DNA from: an uncultured Bacilli bacterium
Lineage (GTDB): Bacteria; Bacillota_I; Bacilli_A; RF39; UBA660
Length of the DNA stretch: 64,000 nt
Assembly (NCBI GenBank): GCA_947632595.1
Contig: CANRPY010000003.1
Location: 12,532 to 76,531 of the forward strand
Direction of reading: 5' to 3'
Shown: in pieces, positions 25,568 through 46,794 of the stretch
Layout of the letters: each line of letters starts with the position of its first letter
How positions within the stretch are numbered: position 1 is the first letter of the stretch
Notes under the pieces: generated by a model
Told to the model about the DNA's origin: nothing
Databases searched by the model: none
What the model saw: only the letters and a program-made list of their open reading frames with translations
Translations under genes and position numbers: made by a program

Positions 25568-26488
25568 TTATTTATCGATTGCGATATTCAATAATTCTAA
25601 GATACGATTAAGATCTTTTTCATTTACAAAATTAATTTCTATTTTATTTTTCTTAATAGATACTTTTGTTCCTAATTTATCGCTCATTTCTTCTTCTAAA
25701 TAAGAATATTCTCTATTTTCTTTTTTACGATGTTGTGGGTTTGTCTTGATAATTTTTGGTTCTTGTGTTAAAGATTCTAATTCTCTAACACTGATTCCTT
25801 CCTTGATAATTTTCTCTTCTAGTTCTTTTTGTTGTGTTTTATTATCTAATTTACTTAGTACTCTGGCATGTCCCATCGTGATTTTTTTTTGATTAATATC
25901 TTCTTGAATTTCGATTGGTAATGTTAAAAGACCTAGCATATTGGTAATATGACTTCTACTCTTTCCTAGGCGTTTTGCTAAATCTTCTTGCGTTAATGTT
26001 AGGGTTTCTTGTAATTTTTTATATGCGGTTGCTTCTTCAATTGCTGTTAAGTTTTCTCTTTGTAAGTTTTCTAGAAGAGCTATCTCCATCATCTGAGTAT
26101 CATTAAATTCACGGATAATAGCTGGTATTTCTTCTAATCCCGCCATAAGAGATGCTTTTACTCTTCGCTCACCAGCTATAATTTCATATCCTTTAATTGA
26201 TTTTTTAACAATAATTGGTTGAAATACTCCATGTTCTTTAATGGAATCTGATAATTCTTGTAAGGCCTCTTCATCGAAGACTTTTCTTGGCTGATAAGGA
26301 TTGCTTCTTAATTCACTTAATTTTATGTTTACAATTTCTTCTTTTGGCGTTTCGCTTACAATTTTTTCTTCCACCGTACTATAGTCTAGTACTTCATTGT
26401 TAAAAAGTTCTTCTAGTCCTTTTCCTAATGCTCTTCTTCTTGGAATTCCACTACTCGATATATTATTGTTGGTTTCCATTTCTTTCAA
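25568..26488 (-). CDS. parB: Chromosome partitioning CTPase ParB/Spo0J
   Basis: ALGKGL ParA-activating motif, NPYQPR, IIAGERR, ENLQRENL, HTH GKSRSHITN...MGHAR (parS-type residues). Confidence 0.96.
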   Translation of the reverse strand: MKEMETNNNISSSGIPRRRALGKGLEELFNNEVLDYSTVEEKIVSETPKEEIVNIKLSELRSNPYQPRKVFDEEALQELSDSIKEHGVFQPIIVKKSIKGYEIIAGERRVKASLMAGLEEIPAIIREFNDTQMMEIALLENLQRENLTAIEEATAYKKLQETLTLTQEDLAKRLGKSRSHITNMLGLLTLPIEIQEDINQKKITMGHARVLSKLDNKTQQKELEEKIIKEGISVRELESLTQEPKIIKTNPQHRKKENREYSYLEEEMSDKLGTKVSIKKNKIEINFVNEKDLNRILELLNIAIDK

Positions 26489-27254
26489 TCACTTCCTTTG
26501 CTAGATTGATATAGGCTTCAGCTCCCCTACTCTTTGGATCATATACAATAATTGGTTCTCCATGAGAAGGAGCTTCTGTTAGTTTTACTAATCTTGGAAT
26601 AATGGTATTGTATACTTTTTCTTTAAAGAAACTACGGATATCTTCCACAACTTCAAATCCTAAATTGGTTCTAGAGTCTAACATGGTTAGTAATACTCCT
26701 TCAATATCTAATGTTGGATTTAAGGATTTTTGTGCCATCATAATGGTTTTTAATAATTGTGTAATTCCTTCTAGTGCGAAAAATTCACATTGTACAGGAA
26801 TAATTACTGAATTGGATGCGGTTAAAGCATTCGTTGTAATGACATCTAATGATGGAGGACAATCGATGATAACATAATCAAACTCTTCTCTTAATTCTTG
26901 AAGACATATTTTTAATTGTTCTCCTTTTTTAAATCCTGCAATGGTTCTACTTTTTTCTAATAATTCGGCATTTAATCCTGCTAAATTAATGGTAGCAGGT
27001 ACTACATATAAATTTTTATATTTTGTTTTAATCATTGCTTGTTGCATTGTGCATTCTTCTATTAAAACATCATAGATACTTTTTTCAATATCTCCTTTAT
27101 TGATTCCTACACCAGTAGTTGTATTTCCTTGTGGATCTAGGTCTATTAATAATACTTTTTTCCCTAATACTGCTAATGATGCTGAAAGATTGATGCTAGT
27201 TGTTGTTTTTCCAACTCCACCTTTTTGATTTACTAATGATATAACCTTTCCCAT
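26463..27254 (-). CDS. parA: Chromosome partitioning ATPase ParA/Soj
   Basis: NQKGGVGKTTT, DLDPQGN, IDCPPSL, IPVQCEFFALEG, EAPSHG. Confidence 0.97.
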   Translation of the reverse strand: MGKVISLVNQKGGVGKTTTSINLSASLAVLGKKVLLIDLDPQGNTTTGVGINKGDIEKSIYDVLIEECTMQQAMIKTKYKNLYVVPATINLAGLNAELLEKSRTIAGFKKGEQLKICLQELREEFDYVIIDCPPSLDVITTNALTASNSVIIPVQCEFFALEGITQLLKTIMMAQKSLNPTLDIEGVLLTMLDSRTNLGFEVVEDIRSFFKEKVYNTIIPRLVKLTEAPSHGEPIIVYDPKSRGAEAYINLAKEVIERNGNQQ

Positions 27255-27346: not shown

Positions 27347-28645
27347 CTACTCTTTATCAATTTTAATAATAATTTGATATGACTTTGGAAAATTCATTTC
27401 ATCTGCATTTATGCTTACACCGTGATTCTTTAAGTCTTCGATTGTTTGCTTGATTTTTTTGGTTGCTTCTTCAATTGTATAATTGCCTGTTGTACTTTCT
27501 CCTAAACCAATTGGTGTGCTGTCTATTGATGGTAAGATACTTGGAGAAAGATTGTTTTGTTCTGGAAGACTTGTGTTTTCTATCTTGATAGATGCTAACT
27601 CTGGAGATGAGAAGTAATCTTCTTTTTCTGCTTTTTCTTCCTTACTCATTGTTGGAGGAGTTGATGTTGGAATATTTAACAAGTTATCAATTGCTGCCCC
27701 ACTGCTTGCTGCTTTGATATCGGTTGCATTTTGTCTTACTTCATTTACATTAATCGATGGAATCACATCTGGTAAGCCTGCTCCATTCATACCCATTCCT
27801 ATATTTTGTTCTTTATTGTTTTCTCCATAATTAATAAATTTATCCATGGTCTTTTCCTCCCCTTCTGGGTCTTCATCATCTGGGTTCGTTGGAGGTGCAA
27901 TTACCACTTTTCCATAATTTGATGTTTCTTCCTCAATTGTTGAAGAAGTTGGAATCAGTGGTGTAGAATCTAATAATCCTCCAATAGATGCAGAGGCATT
28001 TTGGTCAATTGGAATATCAGAAGCATCTTTTCCTTTTGGATATTTTTCTTTGATTTCCTCTTCTAGAGCTCTCACACTCATCTTTGTTGTAATAATTCTT
28101 TCTACCATTTCTTTTTGTACAGCGACATCTGGTACATTTAGTAATGCTCTTGCATGTCTTTCTGAGATTTGCTCTTTTAATAGAGATTCTTGAATTTCTT
28201 CTGGTAAAGATAATAATCTTAATTTATTCGCTACTGCAGATTGACTCTTTCCCATTGTTCTTGCTAATTCTTCTTGAGTCATCTGATCTAGTTCTAATAT
28301 TTTTTGATAAGTTCTTGCTTCTTCTATTGGGTTTAAATTTCTTCTTTGTAAATTCTCAAGCAATGCTACTTTAGAACTTTCTTTATCATCTAAATTGCGT
28401 ATAATTGCTGGTATTTTAGTCATTCCTGCCAAAGCAGATGCTTTATATCTTCTTTCTCCTGCAATGATTTCATATTTTCCATTGATGTTTCTTACAATAA
28501 TTGGTTGAATTACGCCATGTTCTTTAATAGATACTGCTAATTCTTTCAATGCTTTTTCATCAAACACTTCTCGTGGTTGAAATCTATTTGGAATAATATC
28601 ATCTAGATATAATTGTACTACTTCATCTTTATTTTCATCATACAT
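27347..28645 (-). CDS. noc: Nucleoid occlusion protein Noc (ParB paralog) with long internal insertion
   Basis: rsmG-noc-soj-spo0J synteny; IIPNRFQPR, GERRYKA, HTH GKSQSAVANKLRLL...SERHARALL; Noc-like C-terminal segment (IKQTIEDLKNHGVSINADE..F..YQIIIKI). Confidence 0.85.
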   Translation of the reverse strand: MYDENKDEVVQLYLDDIIPNRFQPREVFDEKALKELAVSIKEHGVIQPIIVRNINGKYEIIAGERRYKASALAGMTKIPAIIRNLDDKESSKVALLENLQRRNLNPIEEARTYQKILELDQMTQEELARTMGKSQSAVANKLRLLSLPEEIQESLLKEQISERHARALLNVPDVAVQKEMVERIITTKMSVRALEEEIKEKYPKGKDASDIPIDQNASASIGGLLDSTPLIPTSSTIEEETSNYGKVVIAPPTNPDDEDPEGEEKTMDKFINYGENNKEQNIGMGMNGAGLPDVIPSINVNEVRQNATDIKAASSGAAIDNLLNIPTSTPPTMSKEEKAEKEDYFSSPELASIKIENTSLPEQNNLSPSILPSIDSTPIGLGESTTGNYTIEEATKKIKQTIEDLKNHGVSINADEMNFPKSYQIIIKIDKE

Positions 28646-34814: not shown

Positions 34815-34995
34815 TTTTTTCCACTAATCCACAGGTATGTGGAAAACAGTTATCCACCCTGTTTATTGAAAATTTGTGGAAAATGTGGATAACTTTCTTA
34901 TTCTCTTAATTTATCCCCAAAAAAATTGTGGATAACTTTGTGGATAAACGGTGGAAAAAACTTTTTCCATAAAAATTGTTTATTTTTTCAACAAA
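34815..34995. other. oriC part 1: DnaA-box cluster in the rpmH-dnaA intergenic region
   Basis: Perfect TGTGGATAA at 34884-34892, 34927-34935 and 34939-34947; near-perfect boxes at 34825-34833, 34838-34846, 34850-34858, 34875-34883, 34911-34919. Confidence 0.93.
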
Positions 34996-35044
34996 TTAAT
35001 GTAGAATAAAACGTGATTAATGAATCTTGTGGGGAGATGGTAAT

Positions 35045-36448
35045 TTGAATGTAGATATCGTATGGTCAAAATTACTAAGTAATCTTAAAGATAAGCTTAC
35101 ATCTCTGTCCTATAATACTTGGTTCTGTGAAACGGAATTATATCAATTGATTGATGGAAAAGCAATTATCATTGTTCCTATGCCTATTCATAAAAGACAT
35201 TTATCTGAGAATTATTCTGATATGATTTCTAACTTATTATATGAAATAACTAATGAAAATTATGATTTAATCTTTACTTTAAAAGAGGAAATCGAAGAGG
35301 AAAAAAAGAAAGAATTAGAAGAAATCGAGAGAAAGAAAGAGAGTGAACTTAGCGTTGATTCTGTTGATATAGAACGAAAAAATACAAAAATCTCTTCTAA
35401 TTTGAACCAAAATTATACTTTTGATAACTTTATTGTTGGAAATTCCAATCGTTTTGCACATGCTGCTGCATTATCTGTTGCGGAAAATCCTGGTAAAATC
35501 TATAATCCTTTATTTTTATATGGAAATAGTGGAGTAGGGAAGACGCATTTGATGCACGCAATTGGAAATTTTATCCAAGAAAACTCCAATAAACGTGTTT
35601 TATATGTCACCAGTGAACAGTTTATTGATGAATTTGTTAAAACAAATCGGAAGGACGAGGGAGGAACAAACTTCAATTATGTTGAGTTTTTTAAAGATAA
35701 ATACCGAAATATCGATGTCTTAATTATTGATGATATTCAATATTTAGGAGGTGCTCAACAATCTCAACAAGAATTTTTCCACACTTTTAATAATTTATTT
35801 AATGATAGTAAACAAATTATTGTATCTTCTGATCGTAGTCCTGATGACTTAAAACTATTAGAAGAGCGTTTAATTACAAGGTTTAGTTGGGGATTACGAG
35901 TAAATATTTCTCCTCCTGATTACAATTTAAGACGAGATATTCTTAAAAAGAAAATTATTGCGAATAACTTTGAAAAAGATATTCCTGATGATGTAGTAGA
36001 GTATATTGCTTCTAATATAGGTCCTGATGTAAGGCATTTAGAGGGCGCTATTACAAGATTGGTTGCTTATTCCACAATTATGGGTGGAGAAAAAATAACT
36101 TTAGATCTTGCTATAGAAGCATTAAAGGACTTTAATACTAAAGGAGTAGGGGAAAAGAATGATGTTCATCGTATTCAAAAAATTGTATCTGAATACTTTC
36201 AGATTTCCGTAGAAGATATTCGAAGTAAGAAAAGAAGTTCTAATATCTCATTTCCAAGACAGATTGCTATGTACCTCTGTAGGGATTTAACAAATGAGTC
36301 TTTTCCTAAGATAGGCATTGAATTTGGTGGAAAAGATCATTCTACTGTCATGCATTCCGTAGAAAAGATAGAAAAAGAGATTCGTGAAAATAAAGATTTG
36401 GCTAATATTATTGAAAAATTAAAGAAAGATATCGGGATTGTGCAATAA
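35045..36448 (+). CDS. dnaA: Chromosomal replication initiator DnaA
   Basis: SYNTWF, YTFDNFIVGNSN, YNPLFLYGNSGVGKTHL, IDDIQ, RQIAMYL, GGKDHSTV; likely TTG start at 35045 after GGGGAG. Confidence 0.98.
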   Translation: MNVDIVWSKLLSNLKDKLTSLSYNTWFCETELYQLIDGKAIIIVPMPIHKRHLSENYSDMISNLLYEITNENYDLIFTLKEEIEEEKKKELEEIERKKESELSVDSVDIERKNTKISSNLNQNYTFDNFIVGNSNRFAHAAALSVAENPGKIYNPLFLYGNSGVGKTHLMHAIGNFIQENSNKRVLYVTSEQFIDEFVKTNRKDEGGTNFNYVEFFKDKYRNIDVLIIDDIQYLGGAQQSQQEFFHTFNNLFNDSKQIIVSSDRSPDDLKLLEERLITRFSWGLRVNISPPDYNLRRDILKKKIIANNFEKDIPDDVVEYIASNIGPDVRHLEGAITRLVAYSTIMGGEKITLDLAIEALKDFNTKGVGEKNDVHRIQKIVSEYFQISVEDIRSKKRSSNISFPRQIAMYLCRDLTNESFPKIGIEFGGKDHSTVMHSVEKIEKEIRENKDLANIIEKLKKDIGIVQ

Positions 36449-37781: not shown

Positions 37782-37841
37782 TTTTTGTTTGTTATTTTAG
37801 TAGGCAAGAACTTTTTATTAGGTTCTGAAGGGGGATTTTTT

Positions 37842-38294
37842 ATGATTCATAAATATGAATTTAGTAAAGGAACTTTAGCAATTGTTCCAAATGATGAAGA
37901 AACTAGTTTAGTTTTAGAAGATAAGGAGAGGTATATTGTTCAAGAAAAGCCATTTCGTATTATGGAAGATAGTTGTCATTACTTTGGAAGTAGTTATGAA
38001 GGAAGAAAAGAGGGAGCTAAGGCTATTTTAGGTGCTGAATATAAAGTACCAATTGTTGTTGAGGATTCTTCTAATTTGATTGCTTTTCCAACGACATCGC
38101 CATATGCTGATGATTGTGCTTGGATTTCTTTAAAAAGAGTCTTCAATATTTATAAGATTGATAACTATCACACGAAAATTGTGTTTGATAATCAAGAAGA
38201 AATCATTGTTCCATGTTCCTTTCGATCTGTTGAAAATCAACTATCGAGAGCTTCTCGTTTAGATTTAGTTTTACAAAACCGAAAAAATAGTTAA
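37842..38294 (+). CDS. comK: Competence transcription factor ComK family protein
   Basis: YE....TLAIVP, KPFRIMEDSCHYFGSSYEGRKEG, YKVPI, FPTTSP...CAWIS, SFRSVENQ match recalled ComK hallmarks; ATG 37842 after AAGGGGG. Confidence 0.85.
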   Translation: MIHKYEFSKGTLAIVPNDEETSLVLEDKERYIVQEKPFRIMEDSCHYFGSSYEGRKEGAKAILGAEYKVPIVVEDSSNLIAFPTTSPYADDCAWISLKRVFNIYKIDNYHTKIVFDNQEEIIVPCSFRSVENQLSRASRLDLVLQNRKNS

Positions 38295-41458: not shown

Positions 41459-43984
41459 ATGGATCGATTAGAAAAAAATAATATTGTTAAAGAAGTCCAA
41501 GATTCCTTTTTGGAATATTCAATGAGTGTTATTGTTGCTCGTGCTTTACCTGATCTTAGAGATGGTTTAAAGCCTGTTCATAGACGTATTTTATACTCTA
41601 TGTTTGAATCTTGTTATACTCCTGATAAACCGCATAAAAAGAGTGCTAGAATTGTTGGAGATGTTATGGGTAAATATCACCCACATGGAGATTCTTCTAT
41701 CTATGAAGCTATGGTTCGTATGGCTCAAGATTTTTCTTACCGTTATATGTTAGTTGATGGACATGGTAATTTTGGTAATATAGAAGGTTATGGGGCTGCT
41801 GCTATGCGTTATACTGAGTCTCGTCTTTCTAAGATATCTTTGGAATTGCTTCGAAATATCAATAAAGATACGGTTAATTTTATTCCTAACTTTGATGAGA
41901 GTGAAAGAGAACCTGAAGTTTTACCTTCTAGATTTCCTAATATTTTAGTAAATGGTACAACGGGTATTGCTGTTGGTATGGCAACGAATATTCCTCCTCA
42001 TAACTTAGGGGAAGTCATTGATGGTTGTGTTGCTTATATTGATAATCCTGATATTACTTTAGATGAAATGATGAAGTATATTAAAGGTCCTGATTTCCCT
42101 ACTGGTGCTATTATTCTTGGAAATAGTGGTATTAGACAAGCTTATGAAACGGGTAGGGGAACTATTACGATACGTAGTAAGGCTACTATAGAGGAATCTA
42201 ATGGCAAACAATGTATTGTTATTGATGAGGTTCCTTATGGTGTTAATACTTTAGAGTTAAAAAATAAAGTTGCTGAACTTGTTCATAATAAAATTATTGA
42301 TGGAATTGCGGATTATCATTCTGATTTAAAAGATGGAATTAAAATTACAATTACTTTAAAAAAGGATGCGAATGCTCAAGTTGTTTTAAATAAGTTATAT
42401 AAACATACGCAATTTCAAACAACTTATGGTATTATCTTTTTAATGCTTGATCAAGGAGTTCCTAAAACTCTTGGTTTAAAAGATATTATTGTTAAGTATA
42501 TTGATTATCAAAAAGAAATTATTATTCGTAGAACACGCTTTGATTTAGATGTTGCGGAAAAAAGAGTTCATATTTTAGAGGGTTTAAAGATTGCTCTTGA
42601 TAATATTGATGCTGTTATTAAAATTATTCGTGGTGCTGATTCTGATGATGAAGCTCGTGATGGTTTGATGAAGAACTTTGGTCTTACGGATGTTCAAGCA
42701 AATGCTATTCTTGAGATGAAATTACGTCGTTTAACGGGCTTAGAGCGTGAAAAGATTGAAAGTGAACTAAATGACTTGTTAAAGTTAATTGAAGAATTAA
42801 AGGCTATTTTAGCTAGTGATCAGAAGATATTAGAAGTTATTAAAAATGAATTATTAGAAATTAAACAAAAATATGGTGATGAGAGACGTACTCATATTGA
42901 TATGACTGCTATTGAGTATATTGAAGATGAGTCTTTGATTCCTGAGGAAGATATCATTATTAATCTTACTAAGAATGGTTATATTAAACGTTTAAGAACC
43001 GATACTTATAAGACACAAAATCGTGGTGGTGTAGGTATTAAAGGTATGTCTACTAACGAAGAAGACTTTGTGGAAAGAATTTTATCGATGAGTACCCATG
43101 ATTATCTATTATTCTTCTCGAATCGTGGTAGAGTCTATCGAATGAAGGGTTATGAGGTTCCTGAATTTTCTAGACAATCTAAAGGAATTCCTGTTATTAA
43201 TTTATTGCCACTTGAAAAAGATGAGAACATTCGTTCGATATTGAGTGTTAAACCGAATGATGGATTTACTAAATATTTATTATTTGTTACGAAGAATGGT
43301 ATTGTTAAACGTACTGCTATTGAAGAGTTTGATAACATTCGTAAGAGTGGTAAAATTGCTATTGTTTTAAGGGAAGATGACGAATTAATTACTGTTAAAA
43401 AGACCTGTGGAAAAAATGAAATTGTCATTGGTGCAAGTAATGGACGTATGGTTCGATTTGATGAAAATGAGATTCGAAGCATGGGTCGTAGCAGTTCTGG
43501 TGTTAAGGGTATTGAACTAGAAGGTGCTATTGTTGTTGGTGCTGATGCTGTGGAATCTGGCCATATGGTATTAATTGTTACAGCTAATGGTTATGGAAAG
43601 AAATCTTATATTGATGAGTATCGTTTAACTCATCGTGGTAGCAAAGGTGTTAAGGCATACAATGTCACAGACAAGAATGGTATTTTGGTATCTCTTAAGT
43701 GTTTTAATCCTGATGCTTTATTAGATCTTATCTTAATGACAGATAGTGGTACTATTATTAAACTTCCTCTTGATCAAGTTTCTACGTTAAAGAGAGCTAC
43801 TCAAGGTGTTCGGTTAATGAATTTAAAGGATGAACAAAAAGTTTCCACTGTTGCTTTGGTAGAAAAGGATAAGAACGAAGAAGAATCCACAGAAAATGTG
43901 GAGGATTCTGATAATGAATTTCAATCAGATGAAAATAATCACAATGACATTGCTGATGAAGAAACAAAAGAGGAAAATGAATAA
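41459..43984 (+). CDS. gyrA: DNA gyrase subunit A
   Basis: [16 protein letters not shown], GyrA-box QNRGGVG, acidic C-terminal tail. Confidence 0.98.
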
Positions 43985-44035
43985 TTTTCCTCTTTTCTTT
44001 TTTATATTTAAAGGTCTAATTTAGGCCTTTTTTTG
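43965..44035 (+). terminator. Tandem terminator hairpins after gyrA
   Basis: AAAAGAGGAAAAT...ATTTTCCTCTTTT and AAAGGTCTAA-T-TTAGGCCTTTTTT. Confidence 0.7.
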
Positions 44036-44086
44036 ATATTAAAGGGAATTGTTACCTGTGGATAAAATGTTTTTGTTGTGAAAAAT

Positions 44087-44100
44087 ATTTCCCGGGAAAT
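44087..44100. promoter_or_regulatory. Noc-binding site (NBS) 1
   Basis: Perfect palindrome ATTTCCCGGGAAAT, the B. subtilis NBS consensus. Confidence 0.88.
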
Positions 44101-44109
44101 AATTTTTAG

Positions 44110-44125
44110 TGTTTCACGTGGAACT
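44110..44125. promoter_or_regulatory. parS site 1
   Basis: TGTTTCACGTGGAACT versus consensus TGTTNCACGTGAAACA. Confidence 0.88.
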
Positions 44126-44144
44126 AATAGAGTGTTTGGGAAAT

Positions 44145-44158
44145 ATTTCCCGGGAAAT
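44145..44158. promoter_or_regulatory. Noc-binding site (NBS) 2
   Basis: Second perfect ATTTCCCGGGAAAT, within a repeated AAATATTTCCCGGGAAATAA. Confidence 0.88.
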
Positions 44159-44202
44159 AAAATTTTATTTTTCAACTAATTTTGTGTATTTTAAAATTCT
44201 TA

Positions 44203-44218
44203 TGTTTCACGTGAAACT
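44203..44218. promoter_or_regulatory. parS site 2
   Basis: TGTTTCACGTGAAACT, 15/16 match to consensus. Confidence 0.92.
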
Positions 44219-44317
44219 TTTTTCCACAAAAAATGTTAATTTCTATTTAATTTACTTTTCTATCATTTTTATTTTTTCTTCTTTTTTTTGCTAAAAAGCG
44301 ATTTTAGTTTATTCATT

Positions 44318-44333
44318 TGTTTCACGTGAAACA
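44318..44333. promoter_or_regulatory. parS site 3
   Basis: Perfect palindrome TGTTTCACGTGAAACA. Confidence 0.95.
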
Positions 44334-44419
44334 TTTATCCACAATTTTTGTTTATAATTAGATTTTTTTCTCTTTTTTATTCACAAATATTTACTTTTTA
44401 TCCACTTTATAATAAAATA

Positions 44420-44501
44420 ATAAACGTGCAATGAAAGTGATTGAACCAGGTCAGGATCGGGAGATAGCAGCCTTAAGGTCCGCCTTTCATGTGCACTTTT
44501 T
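44420..44501 (+). ncRNA. ffs: Signal recognition particle RNA, small 4.5S type
   Basis: Single long hairpin GTGCA ATGAAAG...CTTTCAT GTGCAC with helix-8 signature GGTCAGG-ATC-GGGA-GAT-AGCAGCC; TATAAT upstream; next to tadA/dnaX as in Firmicutes. Confidence 0.88.
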
Positions 44502-44519
44502 CTATTTATGGAGGAATTT

Positions 44520-44969: not shown

Positions 44970-45015
44970 TTTCTTTGCTTTTATGTTATAATAAATCATG
45001 AATGGGAGGTTTCTT

Positions 45016-46794
45016 ATGTATCATGCTTTATATCGTAAATATCGTCCTTCTGATTTTGATTCTGTTGTTGGACAGGACGCTATTATTAAAACATTAAAAA
45101 ATTCTATTAAAAATCATAATTTTTCACATGCCTATATGTTTTTTGGTCCACGTGGAACTGGTAAAACAACGGTTTCTAAAATTTTTGCAAGAAACGTGAA
45201 TTGCTTGTCTCCTGTTGATGGAATTGCGTGTCAAAAATGTGAAGCTTGTCAAGTTTCTTTTTCACATGATTGTATTGATATTATTGAGATTGATGCTGCT
45301 TCTAATAATGGTGTTAATGAGATTCGGGAATTAAGAAATAATGTTAATTTGGTTCCTAGTTCCTTACATTATAAGGTTTATATTGTTGATGAAGTTCATA
45401 TGCTTTCGGATGCTGCATTTAATGCCTTACTTAAGACTTTAGAGGAACCACCTGAACATATTATCTTTATTCTTGCTACTACAGATCCTCAAAAGGTACC
45501 TGAAACGATTATTTCCCGTTGTCAATGTTTCTCTTTTAAAAGAATTTCTAATGAAATGATTCGAAAAAGATTAGAATATGTTTGTAAAGAAGAAAAAATT
45601 AAAATTGAAGATTCTGTTTTAGATCGTATTGCAGTTATGTCCGATGGTGGATTACGAGATGCTTTGGGTTTACTTGATAAAATGGTTTCGTATACAAACG
45701 ATAAAATTACTTTAGAAGATTTCAATGAAGTGAATGGTATTTTATCAGATGATGATTTATATCAATTTATTTCCCATGTTATAAATGGTTATATTCAAGA
45801 GGTTTTATCTGATATTTCTAATTTTAATAACAGTGGAAAAAATCTTATTCAAATTATGATTCAGTTAGCTGATTTTGTTCGTAATATGATTGTGGACTCT
45901 TATTTGTCTCATAAAGAATGTTCTTTTGATCTTGATTTTCTTCAAGAATTTGAAAATCAATTAAATGATAAAATGTTTGATATTAAAAAGAGTAGCAATA
46001 CCAAAGTTTTTATTGAGATGTTTTTATTAAAGTTTATTAATGATATTATTTTGCATCATTCTGTTCATAATGTGGTTGTGGAAAAAAACAATTCATTAGA
46101 TGTTCCAGTTAAAACTTCTAGTGTCGTTCCTAAAGATACTCTATCACAAAAAGAATCTATTGAAAGTAAAAGTGATTTAAACAATAACGACTTTTCTGAT
46201 AAAAGTGATGATGTCGTTAGTGAAAGTGGTTTAAACAATAACGACTTTTCTGAAAAAAATGAAGATGTTGTTAGTGAAAGCAATTTAAACAATAACGACT
46301 TTTCTAATTTTGTTCCAAAAGTTTTGAATTTATCTGAAATTATGGATGTTCGTATTAATAATACTATGGCGACTGCAGATAAGAATTTATTGAAGTTAGA
46401 ACTTAATAATTTTGATTTACTTAGAGATTATTCTTTTGATCAAGAAATAGGGTATTTGGTCAATTCTATCCTTGATTCTAAGATAAGAGCTGTTGGTCCT
46501 GATTATCTAATTATTTCTTATGATAGTGATGCCAGTGTTGAACAAAATCTTGCTCAATTATTTAAACTTAATGAGGTATATTCTTCTATTACAAATTCTA
46601 ATAAGAAACTTGCAATCGTTTCTGATGATAAATGGGATCAAATTAGGAATGAATATATTGAAAATTTAAAAAATAAAGTAAAATATGAACTGAAGGAAGA
46701 ACCTGAAGTTATCTTGGAAGAAATTAAGAATGATGATATAATATCTAGTAGTGCGATATCTTTATTTGGTAAAGATATTGTAGAAATTGAGTAA
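45016..46794 (+). CDS. dnaX: DNA polymerase III subunit gamma/tau
   Basis: ALYRKYRP, GPRGTGKTT, zinc-binding Cys cluster, EIDAASNNGV, DEVHML, NALLKTLEEPP, SRCQ. Confidence 0.97.
   Translation: MYHALYRKYRPSDFDSVVGQDAIIKTLKNSIKNHNFSHAYMFFGPRGTGKTTVSKIFARNVNCLSPVDGIACQKCEACQVSFSHDCIDIIEIDAASNNGVNEIRELRNNVNLVPSSLHYKVYIVDEVHMLSDAAFNALLKTLEEPPEHIIFILATTDPQKVPETIISRCQCFSFKRISNEMIRKRLEYVCKEEKIKIEDSVLDRIAVMSDGGLRDALGLLDKMVSYTNDKITLEDFNEVNGILSDDDLYQFISHVINGYIQEVLSDISNFNNSGKNLIQIMIQLADFVRNMIVDSYLSHKECSFDLDFLQEFENQLNDKMFDIKKSSNTKVFIEMFLLKFINDIILHHSVHNVVVEKNNSLDVPVKTSSVVPKDTLSQKESIESKSDLNNNDFSDKSDDVVSESGLNNNDFSEKNEDVVSESNLNNNDFSNFVPKVLNLSEIMDVRINNTMATADKNLLKLELNNFDLLRDYSFDQEIGYLVNSILDSKIRAVGPDYLIISYDSDASVEQNLAQLFKLNEVYSSITNSNKKLAIVSDDKWDQIRNEYIENLKNKVKYELKEEPEVILEEIKNDDIISSSAISLFGKDIVEIE
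46170..46305 (+). repeat. In-frame 54-bp tandem repeat (about 2.5 units) in the DnaX linker
   Basis: TTTAAACAATAACGACTTTTCT at 46176, 46230 and 46284; peptide (S.LNNNDFS.K..DVVSE)n. Confidence 0.92.

Follow-up and report, generated by a model that had tools for sequence, protein, structure and literature searches.

Noc is the textbook nucleoid-occlusion factor of Gram-positive bacteria, and its accepted mechanism needs many chromosomal sites as well as a membrane helix. An amphipathic helix was predicted in every Noc homologue examined by Adams 2015, and a helix-less Noc variant was impaired in nucleoid occlusion (Jalal 2021, citing Adams 2015). The Noc sites of Bacillus subtilis are described as scattered over the chromosome (Jalal 2021) and those of Staphylococcus aureus were placed at 41 loci (Pang 2017, PMC5540599). 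In the latter species, Noc was reported to be a brake on DnaA-dependent replication initiation, with small Noc peaks near dnaA, and species-specific contacts with replication or division factors were proposed (PMC5540599). The preference of ParB for its site parS and of Noc for the Noc-binding site (NBS) was assigned to four positions, reading RTAG in ParB and QKKR in Noc, and Q173 and R201 plus a single lysine at 179 or 184 were enough for NBS preference; NBS and parS differ at just two positions per half-site, and exquisite mutual specificity was reported among 17 ParB and 4 Noc proteins (Jalal 2020). Here, we analysed a stretch of 64,000 nucleotides (the window) from an uncultured Bacilli bacterium (GTDB lineage Bacillota_I; Bacilli_A; RF39; UBA660; assembly GCA_947632595.1, contig CANRPY010000003.1, positions 12,532 to 76,531 of the forward strand), in which the spacer between gyrA and ffs holds parS sites, NBS and DnaA boxes side by side. 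We consider it rather probable, judging from these sites and from the proteins predicted in the same genome, that the gyrA–ffs spacer serves as a single centromere-type loading zone for two cytidine triphosphate (CTP)-clamp paralogues, ParB and a Noc-like protein.

The composite element between gyrA and ffs

The spacer (43985..44416; 432 bp, 22.7% GC) is bounded by the gyrA stop at 43984 and by the gene of the small signal recognition particle (SRP) RNA at 44417, and the two classes of palindrome are interleaved within it. A perfect 16-bp Noc-binding palindrome, NBS1 (TATTTCCCGGGAAATA, 44086..44101), is followed by parS1 (TGTTTCACGTGGAACT, 44110..44125, two mismatches), by NBS2 (44144..44159), a second perfect copy of the 16-mer and the only other one in the assembly, by parS2 (44203..44218, one mismatch, the final base T) and by parS3 (TGTTTCACGTGAAACA, 44318..44333), the sole perfect parS of the assembly. 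NBS1 and NBS2 are separated by 58 bp, and all three parS sites of the genome fall within one 230-bp stretch. Three parS and two perfect NBS around parS1 had been proposed in an earlier note on this DNA; reading and scanning of the sequence found the former at 0, 1 and 2 mismatches and the latter as complete 16-mers. Five good DnaA boxes (at most one mismatch) accompany the palindromes. A perfect box lies on the minus strand 20 bp ahead of NBS1 (TGTGGATAA, 44057..44065), and the others are on the plus strand: TTTTCCACA (44220..44228, one mismatch) 1 bp past parS2, the perfect TTATCCACA (44335..44343) 1 bp past parS3, and TTATTCACA (44377-44385) and TTATCCACT (44398-44406), with one mismatch each, inside the promoter-like region of ffs (promoter-like site 44390-44418). 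Of the six boxes counted in the earlier note, these five stand, the remainder being weak matches with two mismatches at 44077 (TGTGAAAAA) and 44349. As had been claimed, a single T stands between parS2 and the box behind it, and likewise between parS3 and its box; the box said to lie 1 bp from NBS1 is only the two-mismatch match TGTGAAAAA at 44077, and NBS-adjacent boxes are at null level in the genus (see below). parS2 and parS3 with their boxes form one 64-nt unit copied at 115-bp spacing (72% identity), and NBS1 and NBS2 share a 34-nt duplicated unit (85% identity). The parS-T-box repeats of the window are therefore not independent events, because one old duplication copied the unit.

The scan covered the whole assembly, a draft of 1,398,357 bases (1.40 Mb; 31% GC, 51 contigs, 95% complete). 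Matches to parS numbered 1, 2 and 3 at up to 0, 1 and 2 mismatches, all of them in the gyrA–ffs spacer, and matches to the 14-bp NBS core ATTTCCCGGGAAAT numbered 2, 2 and 3, the sole one outside the spacer being a two-mismatch site on contig C4. The statement that no other perfect NBS or parS exists in the 64 kb is thus true and extends to the entire assembly. As a control, 40 composition-matched palindromes with permuted half-sites gave on average 0.4, 5.75 and 70.7 matches at up to 1, 2 and 3 mismatches, as compared to 2, 3 and 53 for the NBS; for parS at up to 2 mismatches, the three sites compare with a control mean of 0.8. Because the degenerate NBS counts (3 and 53) do not exceed those of the controls (5.75 and 70.7), this genome holds no hidden set of scattered degenerate NBS. 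The caveat that NBS might be abundant genome-wide was checked in the same scan, which returned no further perfect NBS and degenerate ones not above controls. The five DnaA boxes in 432 bp compare with a dinucleotide-shuffle mean of 0.12, and none of 2000 shuffles reached five. Chance origin of the sites is ruled out by the genome counts, the control palindromes and the dinucleotide shuffles. Genome tiles with at least four boxes occur in three places only, namely oriC, the gyrA–ffs spacer and contig C13. The cluster on C13 (~27.4-27.6 kb; five boxes at up to one mismatch, two of them perfect) falls within the coding sequence of a radical-SAM/SPASM protein, whose gene is flanked by uvrB and uvrA.

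The spacer is also covered by contigs from four metagenome runs belonging to three studies. The contig of run X4 extends over the whole stretch, from which it departs by a single difference and a gap of one base, and that of run X5, from another study, covers 43900-44503 with 12 differences; an assembly artefact is ruled out by these two contigs spanning the spacer. Among the differences listed, none falls inside NBS1, NBS2, parS2, parS3 or the five boxes, and two changes in parS1, 44121 G>A and 44125 T>A (runs X5, X7 and X9; two studies), give the perfect consensus. Since both parS1 mismatches read as consensus there, the sister strains carry three near-perfect parS. The pattern, small in numbers, fits purifying selection on the sites.

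The two ParB-family proteins

The genome has two ParB-family genes only, and these encode cognate proteins for both parS and NBS, with matching specificity residues. The first (25568..26488, minus strand) encodes a ParB/Spo0J of 306 residues with the specificity residues R-M-T-G and an N-terminal LGKGL-type peptide, RRRALGKGLEELF; next to it is the gene of a ParA/Soj ATPase (26463..27254, minus strand). The second (27347..28645, minus strand) encodes a protein of 432 residues with the specificity residues Q-K-S-R, a disordered insert of ~190 residues and a Noc-type C-terminal domain. The CTP-binding motifs GERR and ENLQR are retained in both proteins. The order of genes is rsmG-noc-parA-parB, the 432-residue gene lying between rsmG and parA as noc does in Bacillus. 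The best structure matches of its product are Noc (7NFU/7NG0, E about 5e-61; 4.5e-61 for 7NFU), the best ParB reaching 1e-49, and the C-terminal 38 residues align to positions 218-255, at the end of the NCBIfam Noc model (E 0.007). As the insert breaks the alignment to that model in two, the score, 284 bits, stays under the cut-off of 315 bits. A maximum-likelihood tree built for the class from 27 ParB hits and 27 hits of the Noc model places the protein on the Noc side, with support of 100/100 for the Noc/ParB split and 100/99 for the family clade; the base of the Noc clade is a trichotomy. Of the proteins sampled, 26/27 in the Noc clade have Q-K-x-R and 24/27 ParB rows have R-x-x-G. Together, these comparisons indicate that the 432-residue protein is a Noc-clade paralogue with predicted NBS-type specificity residues.

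The most unusual points of this predicted Noc are that it has no membrane-targeting helix and that it carries a long insert modelled as disordered. The protein begins with MYDENKDEVVQ, its residue 5 aligning to residue 24 of Geobacillus Noc (7NFU), and the open frame comprises 435 codons with only three upstream of the start. All 18 aligned homologues (404-523 residues) begin likewise, without an N-terminal helix, and a long helix-less Noc was found in 7/7 family members sampled, the start being longer and uncertain in one (G045). The insert separates the DNA-binding domain from the C-terminal domain. In the AlphaFold2 model, residues 1-201 and the C-terminal domain fold, and residues 205-390 have a predicted local distance difference test (pLDDT) score <50 with three short helices; the model gives no clue to function. 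Short motifs of the insert (PLxPT, SNYGKVxIAPP, KFINYGEI, ALDNLLNI and EDYF) are kept across the 18 homologues. A phmmer search with the insert against 1.84 billion representatives returned 10 proteins at E up to 0.001, and none of the seven of these that were scanned with Pfam hints at a partner: three have ParB domains, three are without a Pfam match and one has a PKD-repeat match, taken as spurious. A Protein Atlas look-up with residues 205-432 gave no usable match. A four-chain complex prediction of the insert (205-390) with FtsZ, ParA and domain I of DnaA scored 0.00 twice, which is no answer either way, and when hydrophobic moments were scanned for a membrane helix that might stand in for the missing one, the top window of the linker (KTMDKFINYGE, 0.60) was separated no better than controls. 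FtsZ (contig C17) and SMC (contig C5) are encoded in the genome; a search of the 95%-complete assembly gave no MinD above the family cut-off, the sole match being ParA itself.

Conservation of the arrangement and genomic setting

Interleaved parS/NBS arrays occupy the same spacer in 20/24 congeners. Perfect NBS were found in 19 of the 24, in 1 to 11 copies that were without exception confined to one locus or to two contig ends, and the reversed NBS control pattern gave 0 in every congener; in the twentieth (G017), three NBS with one mismatch alternate with four parS at 62-66 bp. In the other four, the spacer coincides with a contig break (G006 and G024) or the ffs-tadA region is missing from the assembly (G018 and G011), and none of the 24 congeners has an assembled spacer without an array. 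The sites are flanked by gyrA, ffs or tadA at 18/19 congener loci and, among the matches listed, the parS sites of congeners fall at the same loci except for single sites on G001:C33, G001:C4 and G009:C1. The sites alternate, often as tandem units, with a period that varies by species (about 51, 56, 62, 105-115 and ~250 bp). The centre-to-centre distance from NBS to the nearest parS is at most 40 bp at 12/19 loci, with an even spread over 17-39 bp and no preferred phase; a fixed helical phasing of parS and NBS is ruled out by this continuous range. The scan of relatives asked for in the earlier note therefore shows co-location of parS and NBS to be conserved over the genus and, as detailed below, to recur over the family.

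DnaA boxes next to parS follow a looser rule. Within the genus, a box with at most one mismatch lies within 0-3 bp at 19/61 distinct parS contexts and at 10/19 loci, the gaps of 0, 1, 2 and 3 bp accounting for 5, 8, 4 and 2 cases, respectively, as compared to a mean of 1.7 and a maximum of 5 in a local shifted-position null. The box is on the tadA side of parS at 9/9 loci with readable orientation. NBS-abutting boxes were found at 2/66 sites, against a null mean of 2.0. Six of 30 family loci, chosen for their parS-NBS pairs, have a parS-abutting box, and at several the boxes lie between parS and NBS. The strict form of abutment (perfect parS core, gap of 0-4 bp, perfect box, orientation as in the window) was found in 4/301 family genomes. 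The abutment of parS and box is real and enriched, and is mainly a genus trait with loose spacing, kinship inflating the counts. A conserved spacing of 1 bp was not upheld, as the gaps are 0-3 bp in the genus, the strict form is at 4/301 and the two cases in the window are a duplication; as a family trait, a fixed 1-bp spacing is ruled out by the 0-3 bp gaps and by the 4/301.

Beyond the genus, perfect NBS are present in 128/149 sampled family genomes, at 1-10 each, the reversed control giving 0. Among the matches listed for genomes with several NBS, a single contig carries every one inside 22 kb in 11/18, and in the others they are spread over separate contigs. A strict parS-NBS pair (perfect 12-bp cores, 4-34 bp apart) occurs in 48/301 family genomes and 40/214 genera (control 0); the window's own genome fails this test because its parS1 is imperfect. 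In three mapped genomes of other genera, the main parS array is in the gyrA-tadA spacer, with NBS interleaved in two and none there in the third (G175). The mapped genomes of other genera have extra single NBS inside dnaX, in the mnmE-mnmG and recF-gyrB spacers and behind recR; most of these are no more than about 12 kb away from dnaA, and the farthest is at about 17 kb. In G086:C1 and G150:C5, from another genus, a single perfect NBS is located in the mnmE-mnmG spacer, across oriC; since this site lies beyond oriC, NBS flank the origin on both arms in these two genomes.

The gene dnaX provides observations of its own. In a congener (G012:C12, locus L013, positions 1440-1620), the low-complexity linker of dnaX contains, in frame, two perfect 16-bp NBS that encode ..KNISREI.. 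two times in the form of a 57-bp repeat; just upstream of them is a perfect DnaA box. One NBS is also held by dnaX in two genomes of other genera, G150 and G175. It seems that the NBS DNA sequence inside the dnaX coding region is under selection. In the window, the linker of DnaX (dnaX 44998-46794, residues about 380-440) has a threefold repeat of a ..LNNNDFS.K..DVVSES.. unit, and this linker is a hotspot of short tandem duplication in the clade.

In the class at large, Noc-clade proteins outside the family have 250-296 residues, apart from two of 362-369 residues in family f24. Helix-type N-termini (MFNIF, MNLF and MGLFDF) are found in families f6, f9 and f15 and in one f24 member, and Noc-clade proteins of f5, f11, f14 and f23 have none. 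In three genomes with a helix-type Noc, no perfect NBS was found; imperfect NBS-like sites number 16-22, as compared to 7-11 in the control, and are scattered over the chromosome, as in the published cases of B. subtilis and S. aureus. The proteins of f5, f11, f14 and f23 (loci L069-L080) are short, with 251-260 residues, Q-K-x-R and no N-terminal hydrophobic helix motif, and the genomes sampled from these families have 0 or 1 perfect NBS.

The spacer is part of the origin region of the chromosome. On the minus strand, the gene order assigned with Pfam is ychF, an abgT-type transporter gene, parB, parA, the second ParB-family gene, rsmG, mnmG, mnmE, jag, yidC and rnpA; on the plus strand it is dnaA, dnaN, comK, recF, gyrB, gyrA, the spacer, ffs, tadA, dnaX, ybaB and recR. 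Two terminator-like hairpins (43966..44030, plus strand) stand behind gyrA, and the right border of the spacer is formed by ffs (44417..44507, plus strand; RF00169, 53 bits, E 1.1e-10). The DnaA-box cluster of oriC (34825..35026), upstream of dnaA (35027..36448, plus strand), is the densest in the genome, with eight boxes at up to one mismatch, three of them perfect. Cumulative GC skew is lowest around dnaA, at 32-36 kb, and climbs steadily past 44 kb; gene orientation switches at rnpA/dnaA (34-36 kb) and not at the gyrA–ffs spacer. The parS array is thus origin-proximal: the boxes upstream of dnaA (34825-34947) and the skew minimum are about 9 kb away by measurement, not the ~8 kb given before. 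A ComK-family gene (37785-38294, plus strand; Pfam E 2.9e-42) is found between dnaN and recF in this conserved origin block.

Interpretation and comparison with known systems

The predicted arrangement is not that of classical nucleoid occlusion and looks like a two-clamp, origin-proximal centromere. ParB would load at the three parS and act with ParA and SMC in origin segregation, and the Noc-clade paralogue would load at the two NBS, 24-34 bp off. From there, the two clamps would slide over shared DNA close to the origin, so that a domain of mixed ParB and Noc would form beside oriC. The Noc-like protein would most likely travel with the segregating origin, bringing with it whatever its insert binds, and at the parS-abutting boxes the occupancy of DnaA and the loading or sliding of ParB would probably influence one another, by titration or as a roadblock. 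Because the protein has no N-terminal membrane helix and its sites lie only beside parS, it could not be a nucleoid-wide, membrane-tethering division block. The sites, their uniqueness in the genome, their conservation and the two encoded proteins with their sequence features are observations; from these we infer that both proteins bind and behave as clamps, that they spread together and that there may be a coupling to division or initiation. Of the single loading hub proposed in the earlier note, the part that is kept is a putative single zone for two CTP-clamp paralogues with DnaA boxes near oriC, and the parts that are dropped or weakened are the exact spacing and the adjacency of NBS and box. 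At this zone ParB, Noc and DnaA may, as suggested there, compete or cooperate. The disordered insert is the obvious candidate for a new Noc output. MipZ, an origin-anchored regulator, acts on ParB in Caulobacter, and by the same logic the Noc-like protein could be a division inhibitor anchored at origins; in a second model it could be a brake on DnaA like S. aureus Noc, perhaps one that acts at the boxes. For the boxes as such, titration of DnaA is conceivable, in the manner of the B. subtilis clusters that act in synergy with Spo0J, as is a stop or gate for ParB clamps, akin in concept to DnaA at the Caulobacter centromere or to the locking of the KorB clamp.

Several points weigh against a shared loading zone of this kind. 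At 7/19 congener loci, no NBS is found within 40 bp of any parS, and only 48 of the 301 family genomes have the strict pair; with single NBS occurring elsewhere as well, the interleaving is frequent and not obligatory. Helix loss alone does not define the system, because four other families share it. Rather than selection for contact, tandem co-duplication within a single roomy spacer close to oriC may account for the tight spacing; parS-box abutment could be inherited and not independently selected, and a simple role in transcription may explain two of the five boxes, which overlap the promoter-like site of ffs. In addition, the behaviour of the proteins at these sites is predicted only, and the organism is uncultured. 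Taken further, such points lead to an explanation in which the spacer is a shared safe harbour where sites for ParB, Noc and DnaA pile up by co-duplication, with no interplay. This would suit the array periods, which differ by species as independent slippage or duplication predicts, the lack of a preferred parS-NBS phase, the duplicated units that make up the window's repeats, the NBS standing alone in other spacers and in dnaX in other genera, and the boxes at 44377 and 44398 within the ffs promoter-like site. We nevertheless regard it as rather unlikely, as it leaves unexplained why every NBS is origin-proximal while genomes with a helix-bearing Noc spread theirs, why parS-NBS pairs within 34 bp occur in 40 of the 214 genera with a control of 0, and why parS-abutting boxes are about tenfold over the local null.

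A different objection concerns the protein that uses the NBS-type palindromes, which might be bound by ParB, as a second class of sites, or by some other factor, the Noc-like protein having another DNA target or none. NBS and parS are close enough in sequence, with two positions per half-site setting them apart (Jalal 2020), for this to be conceivable; it is made quite improbable by the Q and R kept at the switching positions together with a permissive K, by the R and G kept in ParB, by the mutual specificity of the 17 ParB and 4 Noc proteins (Jalal 2020), by the residues of the class sample (Q-K-x-R in all Noc-clade proteins but one, R-x-x-G in all ParB rows but three) and by the coincidence of perfect NBS in 128 of the 149 family genomes with this protein type in all seven examined. 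Still less credible is the auxiliary origin that the earlier note had entertained, in which DnaA at the five boxes would unwind the AT-rich DNA of the spacer. What speaks for it are the boxes, a genuine cluster among only three in the genome, in a spacer with 77% A+T. Both the GC skew, with its minimum at 32-36 kb and not at 44 kb, and the orientation of genes turn at dnaA, upstream of which the densest cluster is located, and a parS-abutting box is absent at 9/19 congener loci and at 24/30 family loci that keep parS and NBS. A secondary origin at this position is accordingly judged highly improbable.

Returning to the shared loading zone, a wider proposal can be put forward tentatively, with the odds somewhat against it: that Noc in this family is a second centromere protein beside ParB, riding with the origin, that its insert delivers a regulatory activity, and that parS-abutting boxes gate or block the ParB clamp. 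By analogy, candidate activities for such a protein would be a brake on DnaA, as with S. aureus Noc, or, in cells for which no MinD was detected, inhibition of division from the origins. In a bolder form of the proposal, interleaved arrays would be the birthplace of Noc, NBS having arisen from parS in situ after a parB duplication, and the helix and the dispersal of sites having come later in Bacillales. This form is compatible with the tree because the base of the Noc clade is a trichotomy.

A whole bacterial family, made up of small-genome gut Bacilli, retains Noc and its exact site without dispersed sites or a helix. It may be regarded as a natural experiment on the roles open to a ParB paralogue after a switch of DNA specificity, on the sharing of one loading zone by two sliding clamps, and on the ties among initiation (DnaA), segregation (ParB) and possibly division in minimal genomes without a detected MinD. 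The compact and naturally orthogonal parS/NBS arrays would also be useful for work on clamp traffic.

Full-text searches of the literature listed no paper on interleaved parS/NBS, on an origin-restricted NBS set or on a helix-less Noc, and the comparison made here is with systems that share some of the parts. The likeness to MipZ-ParB and KorA-KorB, where KorA is described as locking the KorB clamp, is one of logic, in that a ParB-family clamp carries, or is trapped by, a further factor at a set locus; there is no sequence relationship, and the comparison is an analogy only. With respect to DnaA boxes, the non-oriC clusters of B. subtilis were reported to restrain initiation in synergy with Spo0J (Okumura 2012, PMC3245932) and resemble the present one in being oriC-proximal and outside the origin; in that account they are described apart from parS, whereas here cluster and centromere share 400 bp. 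Initiator sites within a centromere are known from Caulobacter, with DnaA boxes in the parS region, and from Vibrio cholerae, with ParB2/RctB at rctA-parS2 (PMC6399470, citing Mera 2014), where they are described as coupling initiation and segregation. Here, by comparison, boxes abut parS at 0-3 bp and predicted sites of a third protein are added.

With respect to the ParB/Spo0J-parS centromeres of Firmicutes, the consensus parS, a ParB with R-x-x-G, ParA, SMC and a position near oriC are all shared; here, in contrast, the parS sites are packed in 230 bp and interleaved with those of a second clamp, and relatives carry mixed tandem units. S. aureus provides the case of a Noc orthologue linked to initiation, there with many chromosome-wide sites and with membrane binding. 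The Noc-NBS occlusion systems of B. subtilis and S. aureus share with the present one the 16-bp NBS, the Q-K-x-R residues, the CTP motifs, the gene order rsmG-noc-parA-parB and the Noc-type C-terminal domain. They differ from the predicted protein in that it has no N-terminal amphipathic helix and no helix alpha-2 and carries instead the ~190-residue disordered insert with its conserved short motifs, and in that two perfect sites are present here at one locus, whereas published Noc sites are dispersed. Set beside these systems, the proteins and the sites are known ones, but the architecture and the site logic are new.

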